A stretch of 64,000 nt of DNA from Promethearchaeota archaeon (lineage in GTDB: Archaea; Asgardarchaeota; Lokiarchaeia; Sigyniarchaeales; SOKP01). The stretch is from assembly GCA_048940445.1 (NCBI GenBank), contig JBHLON010000010.1, positions 139-64,138 on the forward strand. The letters are read 5' to 3'. Below the pieces are notes generated by a model. The model was not told the origin of the DNA, did no database searches, and worked only from the letters and a program-made list of their open reading frames with translations. Shown here in pieces: positions 474 through 20,716 of this stretch. Position 1 is the first letter of the stretch; every line of letters begins with the position of its first letter. The position numbers were made by a program, and so were the translations under genes.

Positions 474-1727
474 TTATACTATCCGAACCAGAGTTGTATG
501 GCAAAATTCACATCTAATCGCCCCCTTCTTTGAATCTTTTTGAGTTAAAGACTCTTTGAGTTGAATACCGCAATATGGACAATTTAATTCATGAATTTTG
601 GCTCTTAATTTTTCAAACAGCCATAGTGGAATCTCATTTTTGAAGAACCAATTTGGTAAGTTGCTTAAAAAGTTGGAATTCTCGAACACAATGTCTAGTT
701 CTTCATCATTAAGGTAATTCAAATATCCTTGATTGATTAGATATAAAACAACAGAAGGATAGCCACTTTCTAAACGTAAGGCAATTTCTTCTTTGAATAC
801 TTTATTAGCAAGGGGATCTCCAGCCTTTACAAGAGCCTTTAATAACGGAAAAGCTAAATTTCTGTGTAACAAATTTGAAGAGTAATTGTTTTCATACCAC
901 GCCTGAATGTTAGAGCAATGTGCCCAAAATTCAACTTCGGGAGAGATACTAAATTTAGAAGCCCCTTGTTGTTCCATTGAGGTATCTAAGATTTCTGCAG
1001 CTTCATCTATTGACTCAATCTTATCATAGTCTCTGATTTTATCAAGTTGAAGATTTAGCAGTAGATATTTGCATTGTCGAAATAGAGAGCCTCCCACATA
1101 TATATTTGTTTTTTCATTTTCCAATCTAAGCTTTAAGTAATTATTAATTATGAATTCTTTTCTTATATATACAAAGGGGTTCTGCTCCCCATTGCAATAC
1201 TGAAATATCATGTTTACCAAAGTTTGAAAAGCTTGGTTAACATTTTGTTCATTTTCAAGAGGAATTTCTGCGAATGCTGAAAGGTGATAGCTTTCTGCCA
1301 ATGATCTTCCTTGTTCCCATGATACTTCTCTTGTTTTATCTTTTGAATTAACTGATGAACCTAAGAGCATGATTGGGATGTCTCTGGTTCTTTGTCTTAT
1401 TAATCTGATATGATCTGCTAAGCAATCTAAAGATCCCGAATTCATGATATCATATAAAAATATAGCACCTAAAGCTCCACAAGAATACATTGGTATAAGA
1501 GATCTGAAGCGTTCTTGTCCTCCTACTAACCAAATCTGTAATTTGATCATCTTACCAGATGATTCTACCGATTTAACATGAAATTCTACACCAATTGTCA
1601 TTTCATAGTCTTCTTTAAAGACGTTATGACAATAATTTGCTTCCAGAAATTGTTTGCCAACAACCTCATCACCCATGATCATTATTTTATAAAGATAATC
1701 ATACATTGGCATTTTATGAATTTCCAA
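474..1727 (-). CDS. Rab-like small GTPase-fold protein with degenerate nucleotide-binding motifs, C-terminal helical domain and zinc ribbon
   Basis: 417 aa. The first ~170 aa align by eye to the paralog at 8323-9117 (YDYLYKIMIMGD, MTIGVEFHVK, KLQIW..GGQERF, GALGAIFLYD). G1 is GDEVVGKQ (no Ser/Thr) and G3 is WLVGGQE (Asp lost). NKxD is replaced by GSSVNSKD and SAK by AEIP. The C-terminus ends in CPYCG-x17-CEFC. Confidence 0.75.
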   Translation of the reverse strand: MEIHKMPMYDYLYKIMIMGDEVVGKQFLEANYCHNVFKEDYEMTIGVEFHVKSVESSGKMIKLQIWLVGGQERFRSLIPMYSCGALGAIFLYDIMNSGSLDCLADHIRLIRQRTRDIPIMLLGSSVNSKDKTREVSWEQGRSLAESYHLSAFAEIPLENEQNVNQAFQTLVNMIFQYCNGEQNPFVYIRKEFIINNYLKLRLENEKTNIYVGGSLFRQCKYLLLNLQLDKIRDYDKIESIDEAAEILDTSMEQQGASKFSISPEVEFWAHCSNIQAWYENNYSSNLLHRNLAFPLLKALVKAGDPLANKVFKEEIALRLESGYPSVVLYLINQGYLNYLNDEELDIVFENSNFLSNLPNWFFKNEIPLWLFEKLRAKIHELNCPYCGIQLKESLTQKDSKKGAIRCEFCHTTLVRIV

Positions 1728-1780: not shown

Positions 1781-4700
1781 TTATGAGTGTTCTGATAAGG
1801 GCAGAACAATTGATTTCTCAATAAGGGATTCAAGGGCTTTAATTACCAGATCTTTTTTCTTCTCATGAACCTGTTCGATTGCATCCTTTAAATAAAAGTC
1901 AGGCTTAACGTTGGTCATGGATATGATCACATTGAGAAGTCTTAGTTCCATTTTATTTAACTCTCCTTCTTGCTTTATTCGATTAATGTTTTTCATTGTA
2001 GTTAATTTAAAATATTCTTTATAATAGAGCTGTAAATGTTCATCTAAAAGCTGTGGCAATTTTTTATTAAATTCATCTAAGTCTCCATTAAAGGCTTCAA
2101 ATTTTTCTGAAAAGATTGAACTTATCGATAGTAGAAGTTCTGAGGTTTGAGCTTTTAGTCTTTCAGAAGCTTGTTTTTTTAGAATAAAAACAATTCTAAT
2201 ATCCTTATTTTCACATATGAATACATTAAAAAATCTAAAATCGAGACTCATCATTCTATCAATTCCACTTAGATTTTTTGGAGTCTCAATGGAATAGTCT
2301 TTAATGTGCTCATCCCCTACAATTCTTTCACCTAACATAGTAATTGCTTGAATAAAACCACCGAGCAAATCATCTTGAAATCTTTGTTCTGAGAAATAAC
2401 TTTTTGAATAAATCCCCAAACCGCTTCCTTCCATTGATAGCGTAATTGCTTCAATATTCATGACATCTCTATATTTTTGGGTTTTTGCGAGAAGCTCAGA
2501 TTCCTTTTTCCTTTTTCGAGGTAAAATAACATAACTTCTCAAGCCAATTATTCCAAATATCCCTATAATTCCAATTAATCCGAATACAACAAACCAAAGT
2601 GGAACATTAGATTGGGGTAATACTTCTTGTGTGATGACTATAACAAAGGAATATTCTTTAACCTCGTATAATGAATTTTCCTTCGAAATGGTTAAATTCA
2701 TTCGATAACTTCCTTGAATATTGACTGGAAGCCTCAATTCTAATTCATAAGTTCCAGAACCGAAGTAGTCAAAATAACCGTTACCAAATCTCCACGAGTA
2801 GAAAACTGTTGCATTTTCAATATAAATATGGGAATTGCTTTCAGTTAAGTTAACTTTAATTGTAATTACTTCTCCAACGAAAGCTTCAAGTGAGTCTTTA
2901 AAACCCATCGTATTTACAGTTATGGGTATATTATTAATGTTGACAATGATAGTTTTATAAATAGTAGTGTATCCTGCTTTTTGCAACTTAATTGTCGCTG
3001 CATAGGTCTTAACAGAAAGAGACGTTGTGTTTAAGCGCACTACAAATCCATATGAGTCGGTTATGACTTTATATGCGGCATCCCAGCTAACAGTACAATT
3101 TGCTCCAAGGATTAAGGTTCCTGAGCTTTCGACTGTGTAATTCACTCTAATATCATAAACTTCATTAAGATCCGCAAATATTGAAGTTCTATTTACATTG
3201 CCTTCCGCTTGGATTGGAAATATAGTCATAGCTATAAAACCTGTAGTCGCTTGATAGTTACTCTTATTAGCAAAAATTGTAATAGTATATGTCTCTATAA
3301 TTCCTTGTTTTGGCAAATCCCAAGTAGAGAAATTTAAGGAATACGTACCATTGTTATAATCTGTAATGAAATATGGGTTTTGCCAATTAGTACTTATATT
3401 TGCTTGCGAAATTAAGGTACCAGTAGAGGCTCCAGTTACATTTATCTGACAACTAATATAGTCATTTCCTAAACCACTAATCACTTTCTTTGGAGTCTCT
3501 AAAGCTAATGGTTGAGCTAAAATTTTTAGTTGAACTAAATTGATTGAGGTTTGATTCTCATAATAGCTTTTTGAGGCATTAAATGAAAAATAATAATTTC
3601 CAAGATCGAGAGAGTCTGTATTAATCTCACTGATATAAACGCCAGGTTGATAAGTCATCATTCCAAATGAATCGAATGTAGAACTATAGGTAATAGTCCC
3701 ATAAGCAATTGATGCATTTAGATCAGAATCGATAAATTTTACCTTTAGCAAAAAAGATTCTCCAGCAATCCGTTCTAAATAAGTATCTATTGCAATTAAA
3801 CTCGTTTTATGGATAACATTAAATTTCAACAATTTAATTCCAACTTGAGAGGCGTTTTGGTCGTGATCAGTCCATATAATCTGGGCAGAATATTTTCCAC
3901 ATGTTATATTTTCTACTCCAATAGTTATTTTCGAAAATTCGAATATTCCATCAGCGTCAACTAAAATCTTATCTTCTTGATACATCAAGGTTCCATTTGA
4001 ATAATAAATTTTTAAACTCGCGTTTGTTTCATCTAAATTTGGAATAGATGCTGTATTGATTGTTCCATTTACTTTCAAATCATCTAAGGCGTAGAAAGTA
4101 TTGTTCTGTGCCCAATAACTTCCCGTTCTCCTGTATATATTAGCTTCTTCAACATAATTTGGAGCATCCACTACTACCTTCCAAATTCCATTAGTTACAA
4201 TAGTATTAGGAATCTTTAAAGTTGAATTCCCATATCCAGCTGTCGCTAATACATCATTTATTTTATTAGCACCGTAAGGATTAATTAATTGAGTAACATT
4301 CCAATTAGTTGGTTTTGTTACATTCAAATAATAATCAGTAGAGTATGTACCGGGTATTATGATGGTAAAATACATAGTCCAAGTGGCTTTTGTGTTCGTA
4401 TCGACTTGAAATTCTGATCCTGTAAAACCTAATTGAGTTTTTGTTTGCTTTTGAGATGTGGCCTTTACAAAGAATTCAGTATTTAAGACTATTCTACCTG
4501 AAGAGTTAGAGCTGAAACCAAATAGGTGATATCTTCCATCAATATCACCTTCCCACATATTTTTAAGAGTGATGGTGCCTTCACCTGGACCGATATCGTT
4601 TATATTAGTCCAATCATCATTGGTGATATCATTGATATTGAGATTAATATCGGAAGGTTTTGGAAGGGTCGATAATGAAAGTGTAATATTATCATAAAAT

Positions 4701-5587
4701 AACTGTAAAAATCCAGATGGATTAATTCCAGAGTTTCCGAAATTCACTCCAAATTTTAAGGAAATTTTGCCTGGGAGAGCCATACCATATTGTTCTGGAG
4801 TGAACAATGGTATAGAATCTTGATGGATTTCATTATCGGCAATATTTGATAATTTCTCAGAAAAGGATTGTGAAATTCCATTAACATATAAAGAGAAAAA
4901 AACTTTAGCCCCCCCAAGCCCAGTCATCCAATTAATATCACTGTAAGATGCCCAATACTTAAAATTAATATCCCAATATTGATATGGAATTTGATATCTT
5001 GGTAAATTAAATGTATAATTTACATAAGAATTAAAATTGTTCCATGGTGTTCCTGGTTCATTAGCATCTTCAAATCTAATGTATATTGAGTCATTGTCTC
5101 CTTCTGGATTGTTATACCAACCAAAAGTGACATTCTGTGGGCGCTTAGTATAATTGCTCCAATGTGATAAATCTATACCTGTATTAAAGGTTTCATTTAC
5201 CCAAAGTGAATCATAATCATAAATGTTTGAAATATTACATATTACCTCATTAGCTTTCCAGTCTTCAGGAACAATTATAGATGCATTGTCATTATTGTTT
5301 AAATCTAATCCATTATTTGGAAAATCAGCAAAACCATATTCAGTTATATTTTGGGCTTTACCTATCCCAGAATATTGACTTATGGATATATCATTTAGTT
5401 TTAACTCTAAATCCATAGAAGGTGTATCTATTTGATTAAAATTGAAATCTTTCTTATAATTTTCCTCTGATTTCCATACAATTTGATTAGAGAGTAATAA
5501 AATTGATAAGTTTAAGGCAAGTAAAAAGATTACATTTATCCATTTCCTTGTTTTAAATTTCACTTTTTTCACAAGAATTAAGTACAA
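1781..5587 (-). CDS. large single-pass surface (glyco)protein with tandem beta-sandwich-type repeats and a cytoplasmic longin/roadblock-like tail
   Basis: 1268 aa. N-terminal signal anchor (WINVIFLLALNLSILLL). The ~950-aa N/T/Y-rich ectodomain has about 35 N-x-S/T sequons (hand count) and at least four ~98-aa repeats. One TM helix (LWFVVFGLIGIIGIFGIIGL) is followed by RKRKK and a 246-aa tail. The TTG start is uncertain by a few codons. Confidence 0.75.
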   Translation of the reverse strand: MYLILVKKVKFKTRKWINVIFLLALNLSILLLSNQIVWKSEENYKKDFNFNQIDTPSMDLELKLNDISISQYSGIGKAQNITEYGFADFPNNGLDLNNNDNASIIVPEDWKANEVICNISNIYDYDSLWVNETFNTGIDLSHWSNYTKRPQNVTFGWYNNPEGDNDSIYIRFEDANEPGTPWNNFNSYVNYTFNLPRYQIPYQYWDINFKYWASYSDINWMTGLGGAKVFFSLYVNGISQSFSEKLSNIADNEIHQDSIPLFTPEQYGMALPGKISLKFGVNFGNSGINPSGFLQLFYDNITLSLSTLPKPSDINLNINDITNDDWTNINDIGPGEGTITLKNMWEGDIDGRYHLFGFSSNSSGRIVLNTEFFVKATSQKQTKTQLGFTGSEFQVDTNTKATWTMYFTIIIPGTYSTDYYLNVTKPTNWNVTQLINPYGANKINDVLATAGYGNSTLKIPNTIVTNGIWKVVVDAPNYVEEANIYRRTGSYWAQNNTFYALDDLKVNGTINTASIPNLDETNASLKIYYSNGTLMYQEDKILVDADGIFEFSKITIGVENITCGKYSAQIIWTDHDQNASQVGIKLLKFNVIHKTSLIAIDTYLERIAGESFLLKVKFIDSDLNASIAYGTITYSSTFDSFGMMTYQPGVYISEINTDSLDLGNYYFSFNASKSYYENQTSINLVQLKILAQPLALETPKKVISGLGNDYISCQINVTGASTGTLISQANISTNWQNPYFITDYNNGTYSLNFSTWDLPKQGIIETYTITIFANKSNYQATTGFIAMTIFPIQAEGNVNRTSIFADLNEVYDIRVNYTVESSGTLILGANCTVSWDAAYKVITDSYGFVVRLNTTSLSVKTYAATIKLQKAGYTTIYKTIIVNINNIPITVNTMGFKDSLEAFVGEVITIKVNLTESNSHIYIENATVFYSWRFGNGYFDYFGSGTYELELRLPVNIQGSYRMNLTISKENSLYEVKEYSFVIVITQEVLPQSNVPLWFVVFGLIGIIGIFGIIGLRSYVILPRKRKKESELLAKTQKYRDVMNIEAITLSMEGSGLGIYSKSYFSEQRFQDDLLGGFIQAITMLGERIVGDEHIKDYSIETPKNLSGIDRMMSLDFRFFNVFICENKDIRIVFILKKQASERLKAQTSELLLSISSIFSEKFEAFNGDLDEFNKKLPQLLDEHLQLYYKEYFKLTTMKNINRIKQEGELNKMELRLLNVIISMTNVKPDFYLKDAIEQVHEKKKDLVIKALESLIEKSIVLPLSEHS

Positions 5588-7471: not shown

Positions 7472-8344
7472 TTATTCTCTTTCAAAGGAATTTTGAATAT
7501 TACAAATTGAAAAGCCTAATTTCTTATATGTGTGAACAGCAGCATCATTCTCTACTCTTACCGTGATTAAGCACTCCTCTTTTTCTTTAAAAACAGCTTT
7601 CAATACAGAAGAGACTAATGAACTAGCTAATCCTCTATTTCTATAATCTGAATGTGTTCCAACGACCGTTATATATCCCACTTTTTGATACATCCATAAG
7701 CTAGTAATACATACCAACTTCTCTTTCTCAATAATGCCAAACCAAATATTATTTTCATCCATTAAGTTATCATCTAAACTATGATTACCCCAAAATATAG
7801 GATCTGCATTTCTCATGAACAAGACAATCTCTTCTTTATTGCTTTCCTTTAAAGTTTCATATGGATATTTTTCGTAATCCTTTTGTTCTCCTTTTTTCAT
7901 ATCCATACGGTACATTACAATTTCTTTTTTATAATTAGGAAAGAATTTTGCTATAATCGGCTTATGATGTTCAAAACCGGTTATTGAAATTGGGTTGTAA
8001 TTCTCCTCATTCAATAAAAATTCCAAACTTTCATTCGATCCTCTCAATTGAAGCCTGCGATCTTTCCACATTAGGGTCATTCCTTGAATCTTATCATTAA
8101 CATCTAATGCTAAGAAAATTTCAGTATCTTTAGGGTATTGAACATAATCAGCATGGAAGAAAAAATATTCCGCAAAGTTATCTTTAATGAAATCATAAAA
8201 TAATGGTTCATTAACTGGAGTTAGATGAACTGATCGTAATCTTTCATGTATCATATTTCCTCTTAAGAAATGAGATGCTAAAAGAATTTCGGATTTCTTA
8301 TTTATCAAAAATAAGCTAAATTCTATGCTGCCCTTTTTCTGCAA
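7472..8344 (-). CDS. GNAT family N-acetyltransferase
   Basis: 290 aa. The C-terminal acetyl-CoA motif A is VVGTHSDYRNRGLASSLVSSVL, followed by VENDAAVHTYKKLGF. The annotated ATG overlaps the upstream GTPase stop by 22 nt. An alternative Met lies 30 codons downstream. Confidence 0.8.
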   Translation of the reverse strand: MQKKGSIEFSLFLINKKSEILLASHFLRGNMIHERLRSVHLTPVNEPLFYDFIKDNFAEYFFFHADYVQYPKDTEIFLALDVNDKIQGMTLMWKDRRLQLRGSNESLEFLLNEENYNPISITGFEHHKPIIAKFFPNYKKEIVMYRMDMKKGEQKDYEKYPYETLKESNKEEIVLFMRNADPIFWGNHSLDDNLMDENNIWFGIIEKEKLVCITSLWMYQKVGYITVVGTHSDYRNRGLASSLVSSVLKAVFKEKEECLITVRVENDAAVHTYKKLGFSICNIQNSFERE

Positions 8345-9117
8345 TTATGCGTAAATCTTTCCGAGATCGTGAGTTCCTTACCGCAATATGGACAATAGTT
8401 TTTACTCTCTGGTTTATTTACATGTGTTTGTCTTTCAAGTTCTGAGCTCGGAGGCCTAAAGATAGAAGATAAAGAGTTTCTTTCATTAAGTGGCAGTCTG
8501 GGTTTAGATTCAATTGTAGATGGTTCTTTTAAAGTGATCCTTCCAGGACTAAATACAGTTTCATTAGCTATTAATTTGTCGGGTACGCCCTCCCCAATCA
8601 TAAGACAAGTCATGATATAAAAGCAATCTCCTACTCCATCGCCAGTTTTAGCCGAAGTTTCCATATAATAAAGGTTAGCATTCCTAGTAAAACGATTAAT
8701 TTCACTAATAGATACAGTTCTTTCGTCTGATAAATCACTTTTATTGCCTACGAGTAATAGAGGGATATTAGCGGCAGTGTTAGCCCGTATTTCTTGGATC
8801 CATCGAGGAAGATGCTCAAAACTAGCATAGTTAGTAAGATCAAAAACTAAAACAGCTCCTAGAGCTCCTCGATAATATATAGGCCTGATTGTACTAAATC
8901 TTTCTTGGCCTCCTGTATCCCATAGTTGCAGTTTGCATCTAATTACACCTTCATATGTGTCTATAGGAATTGTCTTAACATGAAAATCTACGCCAATTGT
9001 CATCTTATAGTCTTCAGTAAATAGGCCAGTTGAAAATCTTACGGTTAATGCTGTCTTACCGACTCCACCATCCCCTATAGCAATTGTCTTAAAAAGATAA
9101 TCATAATTGTCTGCCAT
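8323..9117 (-). CDS. Rab-like small GTPase with C-terminal zinc knuckle
   Basis: 264 aa. G1 GDGGVGKT, switch I TIGVDF, G3 KLQLWDTGGQERF, YYRGALGA, LVFDLT, G4 GNKSD, G5 TSAK. An ~80-aa S/P-rich linker leads to CPYCG-x11-HNC at the C-terminus. There is no CAAX or CC motif. Confidence 0.9.
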   Translation of the reverse strand: MADNYDYLFKTIAIGDGGVGKTALTVRFSTGLFTEDYKMTIGVDFHVKTIPIDTYEGVIRCKLQLWDTGGQERFSTIRPIYYRGALGAVLVFDLTNYASFEHLPRWIQEIRANTAANIPLLLVGNKSDLSDERTVSISEINRFTRNANLYYMETSAKTGDGVGDCFYIMTCLMIGEGVPDKLIANETVFSPGRITLKEPSTIESKPRLPLNERNSLSSIFRPPSSELERQTHVNKPESKNYCPYCGKELTISERFTHNCRKRAA

Positions 9118-9915: not shown

Positions 9916-10314
9916 ATGGCAGTTTTTTGTAAAAGATGTGGGAGAGTTTTGAAATCAGCTAGAAGTATTAAATTAGGTTATGGACCCACATGTTATAGAA
10001 TAAAAACATTAAATGAAAATCCTGTTAATATTGAAGAGGAAATTAAATTCTTAAAAATAGAAGTAAAAATGGTAAAAAAAATACTTAAAGAATTAAGATC
10101 TTCTGAGTTTATACCTAACCAAACTTCTCCAATAATAAAGATAAAAAAAGATGAAAGCCTCCCTGAAAGAGAAAACAATAGGGGTCAAATGAGAGAAGTG
10201 ATTCAAGAATTAAAGACTTGTTTTCAAAACTGTAATGGAGATGTAAGAAACCTATTAAAACCAATCCAAATTGAAACAAATCTTAATGAAACGTCTCATT
10301 TGGCAATAGTATAA
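9916..10314 (+). CDS. small protein with N-terminal CxxCGR...GYGPTC motif (DUF6011-like) and coiled-coil region
   Basis: 132 aa. MAVFCKRCGRVLKSARSIKLGYGPTCYRIK matches the C-x2-C-G-R...S...G-x-G-P-x-C pattern I associate with phage-borne DUF6011. The rest of the protein is charged and helical. Confidence 0.5.
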   Translation: MAVFCKRCGRVLKSARSIKLGYGPTCYRIKTLNENPVNIEEEIKFLKIEVKMVKKILKELRSSEFIPNQTSPIIKIKKDESLPERENNRGQMREVIQELKTCFQNCNGDVRNLLKPIQIETNLNETSHLAIV

Positions 10315-10451: not shown

Positions 10452-13400
10452 TTGAGAATTTTAGTATTAAGCCACCGGAATCCATTTTTTCCTCCCTATA
10501 TTTTTCAAAAAGTGCCAGAAACAATTGAACGGGACGACCTTAAACAAGTTCCAACATTAATAGAGCTTTATGAAGATGGATTTTTTATCCATATGTTTGG
10601 AACTTTTAAGACAGCTAATCTATTGTTTGATATTCCGAGTAAATATTCAAGAACAAAAAAGGAGCGCCTTTTAATATCAATTATAGTTGACAATAAGAGC
10701 AAAATTAAAGCCACATTAGCTCAAGAGCTTTTAGAGGGTTTCGTTGAAGAATTTAAAAAAATTAAAAAGGTTTACAAAGCATTTTATGTAGACTCTCAAG
10801 TGTATCAAGGAGATCCAGATAAATTAGAAAAAATCAAAACACTTTTAAATACTTTTAACGCAACTTTTCCGGAAGAACAAGTTATATTTGAACAAAAAGA
10901 AGCAAAAGTATTAATATTTGGGCTTTCGCTAGCAGGAAAAACGACTATCATTAGAACAAGAAGAAAAACGGTATCAAAAACGATATTTCCAACTATAAAT
11001 GTAGACATTTCTAGAATCTTAGTAAATAATGTATCGTTATTAACTTATGACACTCCAGGTCAGGTAAAATTTAAGGAAATATGGAAACCGTATTTGAAAG
11101 GGCAAGATGGTCTAATTTTCGTATTAGACGTTTCAGATAATTTAAAGTTTCCGGATGCCCGTAAATTGTTGCATGAAGTAGTAGGTATACCAGAGTTGAG
11201 TGAACTACCTCTTCTTATTCTATTTAATAAGATTGATTTAGAAGAACCAAACGTCAGTGATCTAGTAGAAGCTATGGGATTGGAAAAACTCGAAAAAATG
11301 CCAATGAAGTACTTTTTAACAAGTGGAGTTAATAACATAAATGTTGATGAAGCGTTTAATTGGCTTTCACTTAAAATAGCAGAAAGAGTTGAAACGTATA
11401 CTCCAAGAAGGGAGATAGGGATAATATTTTGTCGATGGGATGAGAATCTAGGAGTTAAGATTGAAGCTGTGTACCCTGAAGATGCTTTCGAGAATCCGGA
11501 ACTGATTTCTGTAAAAAGCTTTTCAATTTCACAATATGTTTTTGGAGGAGAGGAATTTAAGCGAGCCATGGTAATTTTACCTTTTCCTCATTTGAATTCA
11601 AATGCTGCGATTTATTTTGATTCAGTATCTGATGAGAGTATTAGAGGGGGTTTATTACCTTTATCATTAATAATTTATTACAATGATAGGATTCCTAAAA
11701 GCATTATTAACCAATTCAATCATTTCGTTCTCAAACAATTTGAAATTATAAAAAATAATTATTTAAATAATGTCCAGGTATTAGAACTTCTTAAAGAAAC
11801 TCATAGTACCATAATTCATCAAATTGATGCGTATAAACCCTCAATTGAAGCGCTCAAGATTGCAGAATTACGATATGAGGTTTTATTCAAAGCAGCTCGA
11901 GACGCGATTTTAATAATTGATAAAAAATCGGGGATTATAATAGATGCAAATAAGCAAGCAGAAGAATTATTCCAACGCCCTTTTGAGGATTGTATTGGAT
12001 ACCATTCAAGCCAATTATTAAGTGATATTATTAACATCGATTTTAATGAGGAAATATTTGATGAACTTAACAATCCATTTCCTTTAAGATTAGACGTTGT
12101 TGATAATTCAGGCAACCTTATTCCTGTTGAAATAAGTGTAAGTGAAGTCCAAATGGGAGGGCAAGTCTTTATTCAATACATAATTCGAGACATTAGTAAA
12201 AGAATGGAAGCTGAAATTAAATTAAAGAATTCTGAAATTAGGTATCGTCATCTTTTTAAAGATTCACCTTTCTTTATACTTTTAATTGATCCAAATGGTT
12301 CAATTGTTGATTGTAATCCTGCTTTAGAAAAAGCTTTAGGATATACAAGAGAAGAGTTAATGGGAAGAAAGTTTGTAGACCTTTCACTTATTCATCAAAA
12401 TTATCTTATAGAGGTTCTTAAAAGATTTAAAAAAGAAGAAAGAAGTAGAATTTTTCCACCATTAGAAATTCAACTTTTTCAAAAAGATGGGAATCTCATT
12501 TGGGTAAATATGCAATCGTCTTTTGTAGAGATTGGGAATGAAACGTTTTACCAAATTATTTGCCATGATGTAACAGAACAGAAAAGAACAGAACAGGATC
12601 TCAAGAAAATTTCTAAATTACAAGCTATAATTGCGAGAATTATTTCAAGATTTGTTGGTATAAAAGATTTCAATCAAGCTATTAATGATTCTCTTAGAGA
12701 ATTTGGAGAACTAATTAATGCAGCACGAGCTTATATTTACATTTTTAGTAATACGTATAATTTCATGAAGAGACATTATTTATGGTATGGTAAATTGCTT
12801 TATCCCCAAATTGAATTACCTCAATTTATATCAATCAACAACTTTCCATGGGTAATTGAGAAATTAGATACTTCTGAATATTTTTATGTTAATGATATTA
12901 CTATCCTTCCTGATCAGGCAAAAAATTTCAAAATATTTCTTGGAGATCAAAAAATTGAAAACTTTTTGCTATTTTCAATAAGAATTGATGACCATTTAGA
13001 AGGTATAATGTGTTTTGACAATCTTTCAGAAAAAGACTATTGGAATGAAGAAAATCTTGAAATATTGGGAATTTTTTCTGATATCCTTAAAAATGCAATA
13101 TTGCGTAAGTTAGCAGAAGACAATTTGCGTATTAGTGAAGAATCTTTTCATGATGAGTTTGATAGAGAATACTTTTATAAAGAGCTCTTTGTAAATGATA
13201 TGAATAATATCATTAGAAATCTTCAATCATCAATAGATGATTATATCAAACCAATTAATCAGATAGCTACAAAGCTACCAAATGAACTATTAGATAATGT
13301 GAAAAGTCAATGTATAAACGCACAACTCTTAATCTACATAATACAAAAATTAACGTTGCTTAACGAAACTAAAATTGTAATTGAAAAGGTAGATCTAAAT

Positions 13401-13823
13401 AGAGTGATTGATGATGTCATAGATTTCATTACCAGTACCTATACTAACAAAAAAATAAATATACTTGTTGAACATCCAAATGAGCATTTATACGTAAAGG
13501 CTGATAAGTTCCTAATAGATATTTTTGTTAATTTACTTATTAGCTCGATTAGATATAGCAAAAAACCTTCAATTGAATTTAAAATTGTTATCAATAGAAG
13601 TCAAGAAAATAACATAAATTATGTTAAAATTAAATTCATAGATTATAAGAAAGAGATATTAAATGTAGAGAAAAACTTGATTTTTAAGAAAGAAATAAAA
13701 TATGACAGCAAAATTAAAGAAATAATTTTAGGTTTTCTCTTAGTTGAACGCATCTTAAATAATTATAAAGGGAGAATATGGGTAGAGAACTACAATTTTG
13801 TCATTTCAATTCCTGAAGCATAA
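10452..13823 (+). CDS. multidomain Arf-like GTPase / PAS-PAS-GAF / degenerate histidine-kinase fusion protein
   Basis: 1123 aa with a TTG start. The Arf/Arl-type motifs are GLSLAGKTT, PTINV, YDTPGQ, FNKIDL and NWLSLKI (aa ~150-310). PAS-like segments start at LRYEVLFKAARDAILIID and IRYRHLFKDSPFFILLIDPNG. A GAF-like segment spans aa ~720-885. The C-terminal HK-like core has N-box VNLLISSIRYS but no H-box His and no DxGxG. Confidence 0.85.
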   Translation: MRILVLSHRNPFFPPYIFQKVPETIERDDLKQVPTLIELYEDGFFIHMFGTFKTANLLFDIPSKYSRTKKERLLISIIVDNKSKIKATLAQELLEGFVEEFKKIKKVYKAFYVDSQVYQGDPDKLEKIKTLLNTFNATFPEEQVIFEQKEAKVLIFGLSLAGKTTIIRTRRKTVSKTIFPTINVDISRILVNNVSLLTYDTPGQVKFKEIWKPYLKGQDGLIFVLDVSDNLKFPDARKLLHEVVGIPELSELPLLILFNKIDLEEPNVSDLVEAMGLEKLEKMPMKYFLTSGVNNINVDEAFNWLSLKIAERVETYTPRREIGIIFCRWDENLGVKIEAVYPEDAFENPELISVKSFSISQYVFGGEEFKRAMVILPFPHLNSNAAIYFDSVSDESIRGGLLPLSLIIYYNDRIPKSIINQFNHFVLKQFEIIKNNYLNNVQVLELLKETHSTIIHQIDAYKPSIEALKIAELRYEVLFKAARDAILIIDKKSGIIIDANKQAEELFQRPFEDCIGYHSSQLLSDIINIDFNEEIFDELNNPFPLRLDVVDNSGNLIPVEISVSEVQMGGQVFIQYIIRDISKRMEAEIKLKNSEIRYRHLFKDSPFFILLIDPNGSIVDCNPALEKALGYTREELMGRKFVDLSLIHQNYLIEVLKRFKKEERSRIFPPLEIQLFQKDGNLIWVNMQSSFVEIGNETFYQIICHDVTEQKRTEQDLKKISKLQAIIARIISRFVGIKDFNQAINDSLREFGELINAARAYIYIFSNTYNFMKRHYLWYGKLLYPQIELPQFISINNFPWVIEKLDTSEYFYVNDITILPDQAKNFKIFLGDQKIENFLLFSIRIDDHLEGIMCFDNLSEKDYWNEENLEILGIFSDILKNAILRKLAEDNLRISEESFHDEFDREYFYKELFVNDMNNIIRNLQSSIDDYIKPINQIATKLPNELLDNVKSQCINAQLLIYIIQKLTLLNETKIVIEKVDLNRVIDDVIDFITSTYTNKKINILVEHPNEHLYVKADKFLIDIFVNLLISSIRYSKKPSIEFKIVINRSQENNINYVKIKFIDYKKEILNVEKNLIFKKEIKYDSKIKEIILGFLLVERILNNYKGRIWVENYNFVISIPEA

Positions 13824-15007: not shown

Positions 15008-15682
15008 ATGAATAAGTTAAATTTAGAAGATTTGGAAGAAACTATAAGAAATCAAAACGAATATCAGCAACTAAAGAAAAAAAATAAATTAATAGGCGGA
15101 ATTTTGGCTCCTCCGGTTTTGATGTTAGTCATGTATCTCATTTATAATGTATTTGGTATAATTTTTGGGCCAGAACTTGGTTGGTATTTAGGATTATTCG
15201 CCTATTGGATGCTTTGTGGATTAATCTATTCTACATGGCTTATTGGAATTGGAAAGATTAAGAAATTAATTACTCCGCGAAAAATCAAACTGAAAATAAT
15301 TCCTGCCATTACATTTCCAATAATAATGGCATTAATTTTCAGGGTTTTTTTGGGGGTTAAATTCAATAAAATTAGTATAGTTGGAGCAATCCTTTTAGTT
15401 ATAACTGCATTTGGAAATGGAACTTTTGAAGAAATTTTGTGGTGAGGCGTATACATGGAATTATATTCTAAAAATTATTTTTTAAGAATTATCTATCCCA
15501 CTATTTGGTATGCTGTGTTTCATTTTGCATCGGGTTCTATCTCTCCAAATTCTAATGTTTTGAGTTTAGTTATTGGATCAGCATTTTTTGGAATATATCT
15601 TGCTCTATTAGCTAAATGGTCTAATACAATTTGGTGGAGTATGCTTTCCCATATTCTAGGTGCTTTTGTCATGATCACATAA
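15008..15682 (+). pseudogene. CPBP (CAAX protease/Abi) family intramembrane protease gene interrupted by one in-frame TGA
   Basis: ORFs 15008-15445 and 15455-15682 are in the same frame. The read-through is FEEILW-TGA-GVY, where the family motif is EExxxRG. The downstream motifs FHFASG and SHILGAF are present. Confidence 0.6.
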
Positions 15683-17922: not shown

Positions 17923-18221
17923 TTGCATAACAATTTTTAACTTTAGTTCCTTCTTTTTAAAAATGATTAAAATATAATAAAATTCAATATAGAATATTAA
18001 AATATAATATCTATATTACAAAAAATTGAAATTTCTTAGAAGCTACAAGAATTCCATTAATTTCCGTGAAAAAAGTGAAAAATTGAGTAGCTTTCTTGAA
18101 AAGATTTATATAAAAATATTACTTTTTAAAATTTTGCATAGTTCTTTTACATAATGTTATAATAATGAAAAGGAATCTAACAGGATTAGTTTTAAACGTA
18201 AAATGAAAACCGGCACTTAAA

Positions 18222-18776
18222 ATGTATGATGCAATCTTCAAAATTGTTGTTTTTGGTGATGTTGGGTGCGGGAAAACAACCTTAACTCAGCGTTTTTTAA
18301 CAAAAAACTTCATCCCAAATACCTTTAAAACAATTGGAGTCGACTTTAGTACCACGAGCTTCATGGTTGATAGATTTAACGTTAAGTTAATGATCTGGGA
18401 TTTTGGTGGAGAAGAGAGGTTTAGGTTCATCTTTCCTCAATATGTGCTTGGAGCAATGGGCGGAATTATGATGTATGATATAACAAATCAATCTTCACTC
18501 TATCATTTAAGTGATTGGTTATCGATCATTAGTGATACGAAGCAGATATTTCCAATCATTTTAGTTGGTGGAAAGTCTGATTTAGAGAGCAAGAGAGAAG
18601 TATTATTCAATAAAGGCAGGAAGAGCGCAAAATTAATGGGATTGGATGACTTTATAGAGTGTTCTAGCAAAACAGGGGTACATGTAGAGAATGTGTTTGT
18701 TAGTTTAACTAGATTAATGTTATGTAATATTAATATTAAGGGAATCCCTGGTTCATTTCTTATTCCCAATATATGA
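18222..18776 (+). CDS. Rab/Ras-like small GTPase (divergent G3 and G4)
   Basis: 184 aa. G1 GDVGCGKT, switch I TIGVDF, G3 WDFGGEE (Glu at the catalytic Gln position), G4 GGKSD (Asn to Gly), G5 SSK. There is no C-terminal Cys motif. Confidence 0.85.
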   Translation: MYDAIFKIVVFGDVGCGKTTLTQRFLTKNFIPNTFKTIGVDFSTTSFMVDRFNVKLMIWDFGGEERFRFIFPQYVLGAMGGIMMYDITNQSSLYHLSDWLSIISDTKQIFPIILVGGKSDLESKREVLFNKGRKSAKLMGLDDFIECSSKTGVHVENVFVSLTRLMLCNINIKGIPGSFLIPNI

Positions 18777-18850
18777 ACTTTTTTTTAGAGAATTATTTTT
18801 ATGCATAAACTTCTAATTGTCGTGCCGTAATATATTCGAAACTATTTAAT

Positions 18851-20716
18851 TTAATAAATCGGCAAATTGATGATAAATTTACTTCCTTTATTTCTTCCAG
18901 ACGATTCAACGCTTATTTTACCATGATGTAATTCAATTATTTCTTTTGATATGAACAATCCAAGTCCCGAACCTTGGATATCAATATACTCTAAACCTTC
19001 TCCATATCTTTCTATTTTTCCAAATCTGGAAAATAATTTTTCTCTCTCTTCTTGCGTTAGGCCCACTCCCGTATCGTTGACAGAAACTGTTGCCCATTCT
19101 TCATTTTTTGATGCATTAACATTTATCAATCCATAAGGAGGAGTATTTTTTATTGAATTTGAAAGTAGATTTAATATGACTTGTTCAATTCTAATTTTAT
19201 CGATTTTGACGATTAATTCTTCCGGAAGGTATAGTTCTATCTTTAAATTTCGAATTTTAATTAAATACATGACTTCTTTTACACAATCTTTAATTAGTTT
19301 AATTAAATCTACAGATTCCCATTTTAATTCGAGTTTCTTATATTCTATTTTTGTTATATCAAGTAAATTATCAATTAAATGTTTTAATCTTGTTCCTCCT
19401 TTTTCGATCACTTCTAATAGATCTAATTCTTCTTTTTCAAACTTATTTTTAAATAGGGTCATTAGTAGTTCAGTTCCTCCACATATAGAGACAAGTGGTG
19501 TTTTTAACTCATGTGAGACTCTAATGATTAAATCTTTTCTAATTTGGTCTAATTCTTTTAATTTTTTAACTTCTTGTTCTATAATGCGAATTGCTTTTTT
19601 ACGATCTGAAATTTCTCGTACGAATATTGCTACACGATCCTTAGAGAAATAAAGATGGCGAGCTTCAAAATCTCGAGTTTTATCACCTATTTGAAGTTCA
19701 TATTCCATCATTTGTGGTTGTTGGGATTTTATTGTACTTCTTACAGCATTTAAGGACAATGATCCTACTTTTTCTGGCATAATCTCTGATAACTTTTTTC
19801 CAAGGAACTCCTCAGGAGGTAAATATAAGTTTTCCATTTTTCCTTTGTAATCTAAGATGGTGGTTTCCCCATCAACAAGGAAAAACAAATCTGGGATTGA
19901 TTCAAAAATTCTACGAAATTTACTTTCTGATTCTTTTAGTTTCTGTTCAACTATTTTGCTATCTGTGATATCTGTAATGTAAGCAAAAGAGCCCTTAAAA
20001 TTTCCATTTTCACCCAAAATAGGAGCCGCATTAACTCTTGTATTTAATATTGTTCCATTTTTTTTAATAAAATCAAGTTCATAAGTATCTTTTAAACCAT
20101 TTTTCCTCCGTTCTGTATAGCTATTGACCAAGGTACTCATTTCTTCATTAAAAAAATTATGTAGATTTGTGCCAATCATCTCATTTTTTGTATATCCGAG
20201 CATTTCACAAAGTTTCGGATTAACAAATATAGTATCATCGTTTTCATCTACAGCCCACACGCCTTCATGAGCATTTTCTATTAAATTCTTGTAATTCTCT
20301 TCAGACTCTTTTAATTTCTCATTTAATTGCTTCCATTTGTTTATATCTTCAACAATACCTTGGATACCGATTATACGATTTGAACGATCTTTGGTCGAAT
20401 TTAGATATAATCTGCAATATAAATCTTTCCCCCATTTTGATCTGTAGAAGAATTCATTCACGCTTGATTCTCCAGTTTCAATACAAAGTTCAATTGTTTT
20501 TGAAATCCCAGCGGCTTTTAATGATGGGAATGTTAAAAGATTTATCTCTTTTGTGGCTTCTATAGATGGTGAACCAAGTATTTTTAATAATGAATCATTA
20601 ACTAACTTGATATTTCCATCATGATCGGCTAGAAATATACCTAAAGGGGAATGCTGTATCAATAATTTATATTCCTCTGAAGGTTTCCACTCTACCTTTT
20701 TTCCTTCTCTTTTCAA
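18851..20716 (-). CDS. multi-PAS sensor histidine kinase
   Basis: 621 aa with three PAS-like segments. H-box SHELKTPL, N-box NLLSNSIKNT, G1 DTGVGL, G2 GSGLGLFISKEI. Confidence 0.9.
   Translation of the reverse strand: MKREGKKVEWKPSEEYKLLIQHSPLGIFLADHDGNIKLVNDSLLKILGSPSIEATKEINLLTFPSLKAAGISKTIELCIETGESSVNEFFYRSKWGKDLYCRLYLNSTKDRSNRIIGIQGIVEDINKWKQLNEKLKESEENYKNLIENAHEGVWAVDENDDTIFVNPKLCEMLGYTKNEMIGTNLHNFFNEEMSTLVNSYTERRKNGLKDTYELDFIKKNGTILNTRVNAAPILGENGNFKGSFAYITDITDSKIVEQKLKESESKFRRIFESIPDLFFLVDGETTILDYKGKMENLYLPPEEFLGKKLSEIMPEKVGSLSLNAVRSTIKSQQPQMMEYELQIGDKTRDFEARHLYFSKDRVAIFVREISDRKKAIRIIEQEVKKLKELDQIRKDLIIRVSHELKTPLVSICGGTELLMTLFKNKFEKEELDLLEVIEKGGTRLKHLIDNLLDITKIEYKKLELKWESVDLIKLIKDCVKEVMYLIKIRNLKIELYLPEELIVKIDKIRIEQVILNLLSNSIKNTPPYGLINVNASKNEEWATVSVNDTGVGLTQEEREKLFSRFGKIERYGEGLEYIDIQGSGLGLFISKEIIELHHGKISVESSGRNKGSKFIINLPIY

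Follow-up and report, generated by a model that had tools for sequence, protein, structure and literature searches.

The window analysed here is a 64,000-nucleotide (nt) stretch of contig JBHLON010000010.1 (assembly GCA_048940445.1, positions 139 to 64,138) from a Promethearchaeota archaeon of the Lokiarchaeia, with a G+C content of about 30% throughout. We focused on one long open reading frame (ORF) that encodes a protein of 1123 amino acids (aa), in which an Arf-family GTPase domain lies between two domains modelled as longins and is followed by a PAS-PAS-GAF array and a degenerate histidine kinase module (Table 1). An earlier note, made from the sequence alone, had described this gene as a hybrid of a GTPase switch, regulator-like domains in cis and a two-component sensor. 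The single uninterrupted ORF that it reported was recovered in the window and in 24 full-length orthologs, the motifs that it listed (GLSLAGKTT, PTINV, YDTPGQ, FNKIDL and AFNWLSLKI) were all found where it had placed them, and its segment coordinates differ from the re-derived ones by no more than a few residues. Where the ORF has its TTG start, several orthologs have ATG, and upstream of this start there are just 0-30 in-frame codons until a stop.

Table 1. Window positions of the gene for the 1123-aa protein, its domains and genes in its neighbourhood.
Feature	Position	Strand	Residues	Basis or remark
Main ORF	10452..13823	+	1-1123	TTG start, 1123 aa, uninterrupted
N-terminal longin domain (predicted)	10452..10871	+	1-140	AlphaFold2 topology; hhalign to C-terminal longin
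Arf-family G domain	10887..11387	+	146-312	Pfam, phmmer, Foldseek
C-terminal longin domain (predicted)	11409..11831	+	320-460	AlphaFold2 model, Foldseek
PAS domain 1	11868..12206	+	~473-585	Pfam PAS_9/PAS, TIGR00229
PAS domain 2	12240..12587	+	597-712	Pfam PAS_9 608-709, PAS 597-690; TIGR00229 593-717
GAF domain (marginal)	12672..13100	+	741-883	Pfam E 8.7e-5, 23.5 bits, cut-off 22.4
DHp-like helical hairpin	13164..13406	+	~905-985	Paralog alignment
Degenerate CA (HATPase_c-like) domain	13449..13820	+	~1000-1123	Pfam sub-threshold, phmmer
GNAT acetyltransferase gene	7472..8344	opposite to main ORF		Upstream; 22-nt overlap with Rab-like gene
Rab/Ras-like GTPase	8323..9117	-		264 aa; Pfam Ras E 9e-52; C-terminal extension with CxxC...C zinc-ribbon-like end
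Small DUF6011 protein	9916..10314	+		132 aa; N-terminal Cys motif; E 9e-11; directly upstream of main ORF
CPBP/Rce1-like intramembrane protease gene	15008..15682	+		In-frame TAA at 15443-15445

Metagenome assemblies make it plausible beforehand that a chimera or frameshift fused a GTPase gene to a sensor kinase gene, but nothing beyond this prior plausibility speaks for such an origin, to which we give next to no credence. An identical 1123-aa protein is encoded on an independent 32.9-kb Logan contig of run SRR34261206, which differs from the window at 8 of 9372 bases and so carries strain-level single-nucleotide polymorphisms. In a scan of GTDB with one genome per species, the whole module of residues 1-470 was encoded at 39 loci, with identities of 44-90%; almost all of these loci lie in metagenome-assembled genomes (MAGs) that bear the label Promethearchaeota or that of another Asgard phylum. 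Of the 39 loci, 24 have a complete reading frame of 1119-1124 aa; these 24 come from different MAGs and include CP070805.1, a 2.27-Mb record titled 'chromosome'. Each domain junction is also spanned by many partial database proteins (P0001-P0006, P0009, P0010, P0022, P0023 and P0028). The earlier note had advised a check for a chimeric assembly or a frameshift, and both are ruled out by the independent contig and the 24 complete orthologs.

Residues 146-312 are an Arf-family G domain in which the motifs G1-G5 are intact. The Pfam Arf model (PF00025) matches residues 146-307 with 115.8 bits (E 1.9e-33, cut-off 22.3), and phmmer matched structures of Arf1, Arf6, Sar1 and Arl8 at E 1e-23 to 1e-18 (Arf1 at E 2e-23) as well as the Asgard ArfR structures 8oun and 8oum. 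G1 corresponds to G157-T165 (GLSLAGKTT), G2 to T181 (PTINVD), G3 to D200-Q204 (DTPGQ, with D200, G203 and Q204), G4 to N259-D262 (NKID) and G5 to T290-S291-G292 (TSG); K163, T181, D200, G203, N259 and D262 are invariant in 40 of 40 family members. The AlphaFold2 (AF2) model of residues 1-470 (mean pLDDT 77.8, pTM 0.42) superposes on Arf and Arl structures over this domain. In Foldseek, target-normalised template modelling (TM) scores were 0.92-0.94 against Arf1, Arl2 and Arl3, with root-mean-square deviations of 1.3-1.6 Å, and 0.88-0.90 against the GTP-bound HodArfR1 (8ouk) and GerdArfR1 (8oum). Pfam score, motifs and fold thus all uphold the Arf-type assignment of the earlier note.

The likeness to Asgard ArfR and eukaryotic Arf/Arl/Sar1 proteins covers the sequence and fold of the G domain, G1-G5 and the C-terminal (D/E)AFxWL. 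In contrast to canonical Arfs, a longin domain occupies the place of the amphipathic N-terminal helix, Y199 stands where Arf has the interswitch Trp, and switch II reads DTPGQ rather than DVGGQ. The N-terminal amphipathic helix and myristoylation site are absent: the G domain begins at about residue 146 behind the 140-residue longin, and there is no Gly2. Because the longin domain sits where the helix and myristoyl site would be, membrane insertion of the Arf type is unlikely for this protein.

Both flanks of the G domain adopt the longin fold (ββ-α-βββ-αα) in their predicted models. The N-longin comprises β1 (residues 3-9), β2 (16-21), α1 (28-39), β3 (43-49), β4 (52-62), β5 (70-80), α2 (87-101) and α3 (122-138), and pLDDT across this block of the 1-470 model is mostly 79-92. 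The C-longin, modelled alone as residues 313-470, reached a pLDDT of 85.3 and a pTM of 0.83 with the topology β-β-α-β-β-β-α-α. A roadblock identity was considered for the C-domain and rejected on this topology, as a roadblock starts with a helix, and on its longin fold matches. The two flanks are homologous to each other, as the earlier note had supposed: hhalign of profiles built from 152 N-domain and 40 C-domain sequences gave E 6.7e-5 and a probability of 64% over 117 collinear columns, and shallow alignments gave P 0.004. The N-domain hidden Markov model also returns a weak second match, in register, at residues 385-439 repeatedly among family members. In the hhalign pairing, the N-domain SyFD-x3-GP falls on the C-domain rWDEnlG, and A-R-G falls on R-G-G.

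Foldseek searches of the PDB with the C-domain returned first the longin of the Lokiarchaeota roadblock-longin protein 8yqg_B (E 9.4e-5, TM 0.58). Next came chains of GATOR1 and of the yeast SEA complex (SEAC) at E 1e-4 to 8e-4, whose lengths fit NPRL2; a separate PDB sequence-profile search showed that entries 9v0j, 7t3a, 7t3b, 9o5a and 9o5d list NPRL2. These were followed by chains 6ulg_L (E 1.9e-3) and 6ulg_N of the FLCN-FNIP2-Rag-Ragulator complex, the Lst4 longin 4zy8 (E 2e-3), 8dhb_J of the active FLCN complex, which is a GTPase-activating protein (GAP), and DENND10 (8p0v_M). Lower in the ranking was 7mge_C, a chain of the C9orf72:SMCR8:WDR41-ARF1 entry, and Rag-type C-terminal domains appeared just at ranks 36 and 42. 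The modelled fold therefore supports placing the C-domain with the GAP-type longins. These fold matches concern the C-domain, and the N-domain is tied in through its AF2 topology and the hhalign match to the C-domain. The Foldseek search with the whole 1-470 model was dominated by Arf matches and was uninformative on the longins.

By sequence, links of either flank to eukaryotic longins were not significant. No Pfam or NCBIfam model matches residues 1-145 or 313-470, and searches of PDB sequences with flank profiles (two shallow, one of 47 sequences) gave nothing significant, NPRL2 appearing at E 0.93 over the β1-GP-β2 stretch. Pfam Folliculin matched 4 of 18 N-domain members (E 0.05) and 2 of 47 in a more diverse set, which we treated as noise, and the C-domain gives no Pfam signal. 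No DENN core, as judged by Pfam DENN matches, follows either longin; the N-longin leads into the G domain and the C-longin into the PAS array. The description of the flanks as longin- or uDENN-like in the earlier note thus stands for the longin fold, confirmed by Foldseek for the C-domain, whereas the uDENN part holds just as far as that fold is shared.

A long helix (residues 440-469 in the AF2 model) joins the C-longin to the first PAS domain. The two PAS-like segments proposed by the earlier note are recognised both by Pfam PAS_9 (97.8 bits, two stretches) and by the TIGR00229 sensory_box model (127.7 bits, E 2.8e-37, two stretches), with an equivalent PAS_9 at 483-584 in paralogs P0039 and P0050. 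The GAF-like segment was likewise recovered, at a marginal Pfam score, and the longer paralog P0041 has clear GAF matches. We predict that the protein is soluble. A transmembrane receptor was rejected, as no transmembrane segment is predicted; mean hydropathy in 19-residue windows never rises above 1.36.

The order PAS-PAS-GAF-DHp-CA is that of PAS-GAF sensor histidine kinases such as HK853, to which the C-terminus is homologous: phmmer with the last 237 residues matched HK853 structures (2c2a, 3dge and 4jas) at E 1e-4 over residues 56-227 of that fragment. In contrast to these kinases, the catalytic and phospho-acceptor residues have been lost. The H-box reads LFVNDMNNII, with Asn in place of His, and paralogs P0039, P0077 and P0087 have LF(A/T)HD(M/I)NNIL; residues 880 to 1000 contain a single His, H900, at a place outside the H-box, and 901-1000 contains none. 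The N-box NLLNNGVKY of HK853 is NLLISSIRY here (Asn to Ser), the G1 box DNGIGI (consensus DxGxG) is DYKKEI, and the G2 box GTGLGLAI (consensus GxGLxL) is EIILGFLL. The same three paralogs also keep NA(I/V)x(Y/H), DNGxG and GxGLSL. Intermediate states occur as well: P0042 and P0049 have the His with degenerate CA boxes, and P0050 has Gln instead of His. Pfam HisKA gave no match in the 1123-aa protein, and HATPase_c matches residues 1020-1113 with 19.0 bits, under the 26.4 cut-off.

A functional two-component sensor kinase, with PAS/GAF-regulated phosphotransfer and the GTPase module as an extra input, could be argued from this homology and from the intact HisKA and HATPase_c of P0039, P0041, P0077 and P0087, which carry the same N-module. 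We consider it very improbable and reject a functional histidine kinase on the loss of the H-box, N-box, G1 and G2 residues, which is common to all aligned 1123-aa orthologs; the sub-threshold HATPase_c also argues against it, as does the lack of a response regulator among the annotated neighbouring genes, a survey that took in part of the ORFs of the window. Because all aligned orthologs share it, the dead state appears to be maintained rather than decaying. By its sequence, the C-terminal DHp/CA module is a probable pseudokinase kept for a structural role, which most likely is to dimerise via its DHp-like hairpin. The histidine kinase-like core of the earlier note is therefore retained as DHp-CA homology and abandoned as a working kinase. 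Since the pseudokinase lacks catalytic residues, the GTPase, not phosphotransfer, is the likely output of the protein.

Conserved motifs of the longins appear to fall at positions that matter in eukaryotic GAPs. A GP motif at the start of β2, an arginine finger and, in C9orf72, a WD motif (W33-D34, G38-P39, that is WD-x3-GP) mark the catalytic longins of C9orf72-SMCR8, FLCN and NPRL2, and the GP motif has been linked to GAP rather than GEF (guanine nucleotide exchange factor) function (PMC12290439). Arg147 of SMCR8 faces the nucleotide of ARF1 and is needed for ARF1 GAP activity, which is abolished by C9orf72 W33G/D34K (PMC8213707). In the C-longin studied here, W329-D330-x3-G334 lies in the β1-β2 turn and is followed by V335, and R398-G399-G400 lies in the β4-β5 loop, with R398 present in 39 and GG in 40 of 40 sequences. 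The N-domain family consensus is F-D-x3-G-P plus A-R-G, and its Arg, R67 in the β4-β5 loop of the N-longin, is invariant in 47 diverse N-domain sequences. Both R67 and R398 are in the β4-β5 loop and may be the spatial counterparts of SMCR8 R147, FLCN R164 and NPRL2 R78.

The state of Arg67 varies together with that of the catalytic Gln of the G domain. R67 is kept in the 1123-aa protein and its nearest orthologs and substituted in most of the ortholog group. In most 1123-aa orthologs (L008-L026, L028 and L030), switch II reads DIPGK (catalytic Gln to Lys) and the position of R67 is taken by K, N, G, S or A, and R67 is retained in the sub-clade that retains Gln204, to which the protein of the window belongs. 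Among 39 family members, 18 combine Arg with Gln, 19 combine another residue with Lys, two combine Arg with Lys and none combines another residue with Gln. This co-variation matches the pattern predicted for an arginine finger and Gln acting as a pair in cis.

In eukaryotes, paired longins of this type provide a cup-like platform for an Arf or Rag GTPase and supply it with an arginine finger. With a probability of about one half, we favour the reading that the 1123-aa protein is a soluble, probably dimeric, signal-modulated Arf-type GTPase switch with built-in longin regulators and a pseudokinase. We infer, on the model of every solved complex between a longin pair and a GTPase, that the two longins pair as an intramolecular or dimer-swapped pseudo-heterodimer and dock their own G domain. 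The pair would set the nucleotide state of the G domain, a GAP-like action through Arg67 plus the invariant Arg398 being the most likely form, and the C-domain would use its invariant WD and RGG to keep hold of the switch region. In members that retain both Gln204 and Arg67, including the protein of the window, the longins would promote hydrolysis or otherwise set the nucleotide state. The PAS-PAS-GAF array would sense a small-molecule or redox signal and relay it through the long helix, and the pseudokinase would provide a dimer or scaffold alone. The output would be the GTP/GDP state of the Arf-like domain together with partner binding. The hybrid proposed in the earlier note thus survives as a switch with regulators and sensor domains, without its functional kinase, and the ligand- or redox-gating of the GTPase that it suggested is plausible.

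Several points weigh against this reading. AF2 gives low confidence to how the three N-terminal domains are placed relative to one another (pTM 0.42), and a longin pair may also be a GEF or a passive platform. Sequence links of the N-domain to FLCN and NPRL2 are at noise level, and the fold search took in this domain as part of the 1-470 model. The GP motif is degenerate in the N-domain (F12-F13-P14-P15) and reads G334-V335 in the C-domain; the ortholog group has R9-N10 and P14-P15 instead of F-D and G-P, and paralogs L031-L040 and P0009-P0021 keep the G-P. This loss of GP and F-D weakens a canonical GAP role of the N-domain in the 1123-aa protein. The co-variation of Arg67 with Gln204 is confounded by phylogeny, as the change from Gln to Lys may have been a single event. 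Finally, the PAS and GAF domains yielded no ligand or cofactor motif. Since confidence in the inter-domain geometry is low, alternatives remain in which the N-terminal module is a Rag-like scaffold or a platform for exchange or effector binding, or in which the pseudokinase modulates an intact paralogous kinase.

In a Rag-like scaffold, the longins would serve mainly for dimerisation and docking like the C-terminal roadblocks of RagA/C and Gtr1/2, without regulating their own G domain; control by GAPs and GEFs would come in trans, and localisation or partner choice would depend on the sensor. Foldseek of the 1-470 model aligns 306-313 columns with the Lokiarchaeal RagA-like GTPase 8yl2, over the G domain and the domain that follows it, LokiRagM is among the weaker C-domain matches noted above, and some relatives give weak Gtr1_RagA Pfam matches; in addition, MK-D1 GTPases fused between a longin and a roadblock have been called Rag-like (Tran et al., PMC10933270). 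In the 1123-aa protein, however, Gtr1_RagA has no match at E<=1 beside the strong Arf score. Its C-domain is a longin by topology, with much better fold matches among GAP-type longins than among Rag C-terminal domains, and Arg and WD are conserved at what would be the catalytic positions of eukaryotic longin GAPs. We regard a Rag-like scaffold as unlikely, though a serious contender.

The longin pair might instead stabilise a nucleotide-free or GTP-bound G domain without stimulating hydrolysis, on the model of the GEFs Mon1-Ccz1, TRAPP and DENN or of SR-alpha, whose SRX domain binds SR-beta-GTP. In switch II, DxPGQ is similar to the DxPGH of SR-beta, and the Pfam model of SR-beta, SRPRB, matches relatives (with 38.9 bits for P0041). 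Most characterised longin platforms are GEFs (PMC3747258; summarised in PMC10933270), and the ortholog group has lost the GP motif tied to GAP over GEF function (PMC12290439). Set against this, GAP-type longins and not TRAPP, Mon1-Ccz1 or SRX head the fold matches, and the conserved Arg co-varies with the catalytic Gln, and we find such a platform distinctly unlikely.

The module belongs to a large family. An exhaustive HMMER search with the N-domain profile, its matches clustered at 50% identity, gave 524 clusters at E<=1e-3, of which 71 reach E<=1e-30, and a word-indexed homolog search with the C-domain profile found five fragments and no more. Database annotations of the family read just 'ADP-ribosylation factor-like protein' or 'PAS domain S-box protein'. 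We classified 163 representatives with a clear N-domain by the presence of N-longin (N), G domain (G) and C-longin (C). N-G was found in 46, N alone in 42 (some of them fragments), N with a further stretch of over 150 aa that lacks a G domain in 39, N-G-C with or without a tail in 34, and N-C with or without a tail in 2. Tails can be PAS-GAF-histidine kinase arrays, reaching 2317 aa, with a well-scoring HATPase_c in P0041. P0039 (833 aa) is N-G-C-PAS-HisKA-HATPase_c, and one member of its cluster is annotated from a Lokiarchaeota MAG. These varied PAS/GAF/kinase-tailed relatives mean that coupling of the longin module, with or without Arf, to two-component-type sensors is a recurrent theme and not a one-off. 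The architecture, of which the earlier note knew no described example, is therefore that of a conserved Lokiarchaeial family with paralogs, beside which Asgard longin-GTPase fusions have been reported.

Other combinations were observed in the family. In P0076 the N-longin sits directly on 13 PAS domains, and in P0077 and P0087 on PAS arrays ending in intact histidine kinases, in all three without a G domain; these suggest trans-acting versions of the module. In the longin-Arf-longin paralogs P0012-P0016 (620-640 aa), a conserved Cys-rich tail (C-x2-C ... C-x2-C) replaces the PAS, GAF and kinase parts.

The closest eukaryotic counterparts are C9orf72-SMCR8 (an ARF GAP), FLCN-FNIP and Lst7-Lst4 (GAPs for RagC/Gtr2) and the NPRL2-NPRL3 pair of GATOR1 (a GAP for RagA), with which the 1123-aa protein has in common a longin pair and an Arf- or Rag-type GTPase. 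The [F/W]D-x3-G(P) of its family in the β1-β2 turn and the Arg-Gly in the β4-β5 loop would correspond to the WD, GP and arginine finger of these systems (PMC12290439, PMC8213707), and after the Lokiarchaeal 8yqg_B they are the best PDB fold matches of its C-domain. Unlike them, it carries longins and GTPase on one polypeptide, with no DENN domain behind the longins; GP is lost in its N-domain and is G-V in its C-domain, sequence similarity is not significant, and its GAP activity is a prediction.

Within Asgard archaea, AlphaFold models have predicted fusions of longin (L), GTPase (G) and roadblock (R) domains of the types L-G, G-R and L-G-R in MK-D1 (Tran et al. 2024, PMC10933270), Asgard Arf proteins with an N-terminal longin have been described (Zhu et al. 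2025, PMC11914678), and stand-alone longins of the FLCN/SMCR8 type have been reported (PMC12290439). The 1123-aa protein shares the lineage and the general idea with these fusions, and a Lokiarchaeal longin (8yqg) is the top fold match of its C-domain, but where the L-G-R fusions have a roadblock, it carries behind its G domain a second longin that is homologous to the first. In the literature searched, we found no Arf domain bracketed by two homologous GAP-type longins, no fusion of longin-Arf-longin to PAS/GAF/histidine kinase arrays and no graded loss of kinase and GTPase catalytic residues in a longin-Arf-longin family. Some stand-alone Asgard longins carry GP and arginine-finger features, and a 2025 survey asked whether their partner is ArfR or Rag (PMC12290439). 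A conserved fusion that sets two such longins round an Arf-type G domain gives direct genomic evidence that the partner is of the Arf family, and the value of the family lies in linking, as a Rosetta stone for Asgard archaea, GAP-type longins with GTPases of the Arf family.

Bacteria offer a parallel. The actinobacterial conservons (AGPS) combine a histidine kinase-like protein with a roadblock protein and a small GTPase and do without a response regulator; their proposed output is the GTPase (PMC4316618, PMC12236503). The conservons and MglA-MglB have in common with the 1123-aa protein a sensory part of the histidine kinase type, a regulator of the roadblock/longin superfamily and a small GTPase of the Ras superfamily. 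In the conservons these are separate operon proteins, CvnA (histidine kinase), CvnB (roadblock), CvnC (DUF742) and CvnD (MglA-type GTPase), whereas here all are fused and there is no CvnC homolog. The conservon GTPase is of MglA type and its regulator is a roadblock, and CvnA8 has measurable ATPase and autophosphorylation activity; here the GTPase is of Arf type, the regulators are predicted longins and the kinase appears dead. The likeness would be one of function alone.

A bolder form of the favoured reading, possible though speculative, is that the protein is a single-chain, signal-gated unit of a longin GAP and its client GTPase, in which Arg67 and/or Arg398 would be a cis arginine finger under PAS/GAF control. 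The dedication of FLCN/NPRL2/SMCR8/C9orf72-type longin pairs to Arf or Rag GTPases would then predate eukaryogenesis and would here be wired to small-molecule or redox sensors. If true, the family would be a prokaryotic forerunner of the nutrient-sensing FLCN, GATOR1 and C9orf72 GAP systems and an archaeal Rosetta-stone fusion. FLCN-FNIP, GATOR1 and C9orf72-SMCR8 control mTORC1 nutrient signalling and Arf traffic in eukaryotes and are disease genes, and the compact, soluble and probably self-contained archaeal protein could serve for dissecting the longin/GTPase mechanism. The paralogs form a series from intact kinase through retained His with a dead CA domain to a fully dead module, alongside the Gln-to-Lys variants of the G domain. 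This series may be viewed as a natural experiment on a two-component sensor rewired to a GTPase output, a rewiring that parallels the bacterial conservons and bears on the origin of eukaryote-style GTPase signalling.

The gene neighbourhood is weakly conserved, so that the main gene looks autonomous and no inference was drawn at operon level. The Rab-like gene is the sole neighbour retained, and it lies near the orthologs in the four closest genomes alone (L003, L005, L006 and L007). An alpha/beta hydrolase is also among the annotated neighbours. The Logan contig has CAG at the in-frame stop of the protease gene, two substitutions away within the codon, and a gene call of 224 aa; the TAA of the window may mark a strain-specific pseudogene or a sequencing or assembly difference.

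GTPase genes also occur elsewhere in the window. On the minus strand, an ORF of 1268 aa (1781..5587) without a Pfam match at E<=1e-5 adjoins a Ras-like GTPase of 417 aa (474..1727) that has a C-terminal extension of about 240 aa. On the plus strand, a small G-domain ORF of about 189 aa (18207..18773) scores 36.9 bits against the G-domain profile of the family. It is convergent with an ORF on the minus strand (18851..20716) for an intact PAS-PAS-HisKA-HATPase_c kinase, which has no N-longin and whose HATPase_c scores 80.7 bits. The pair (18207..20716) is a second juxtaposition of a GTPase and a sensor kinase in the window, here as separate genes.

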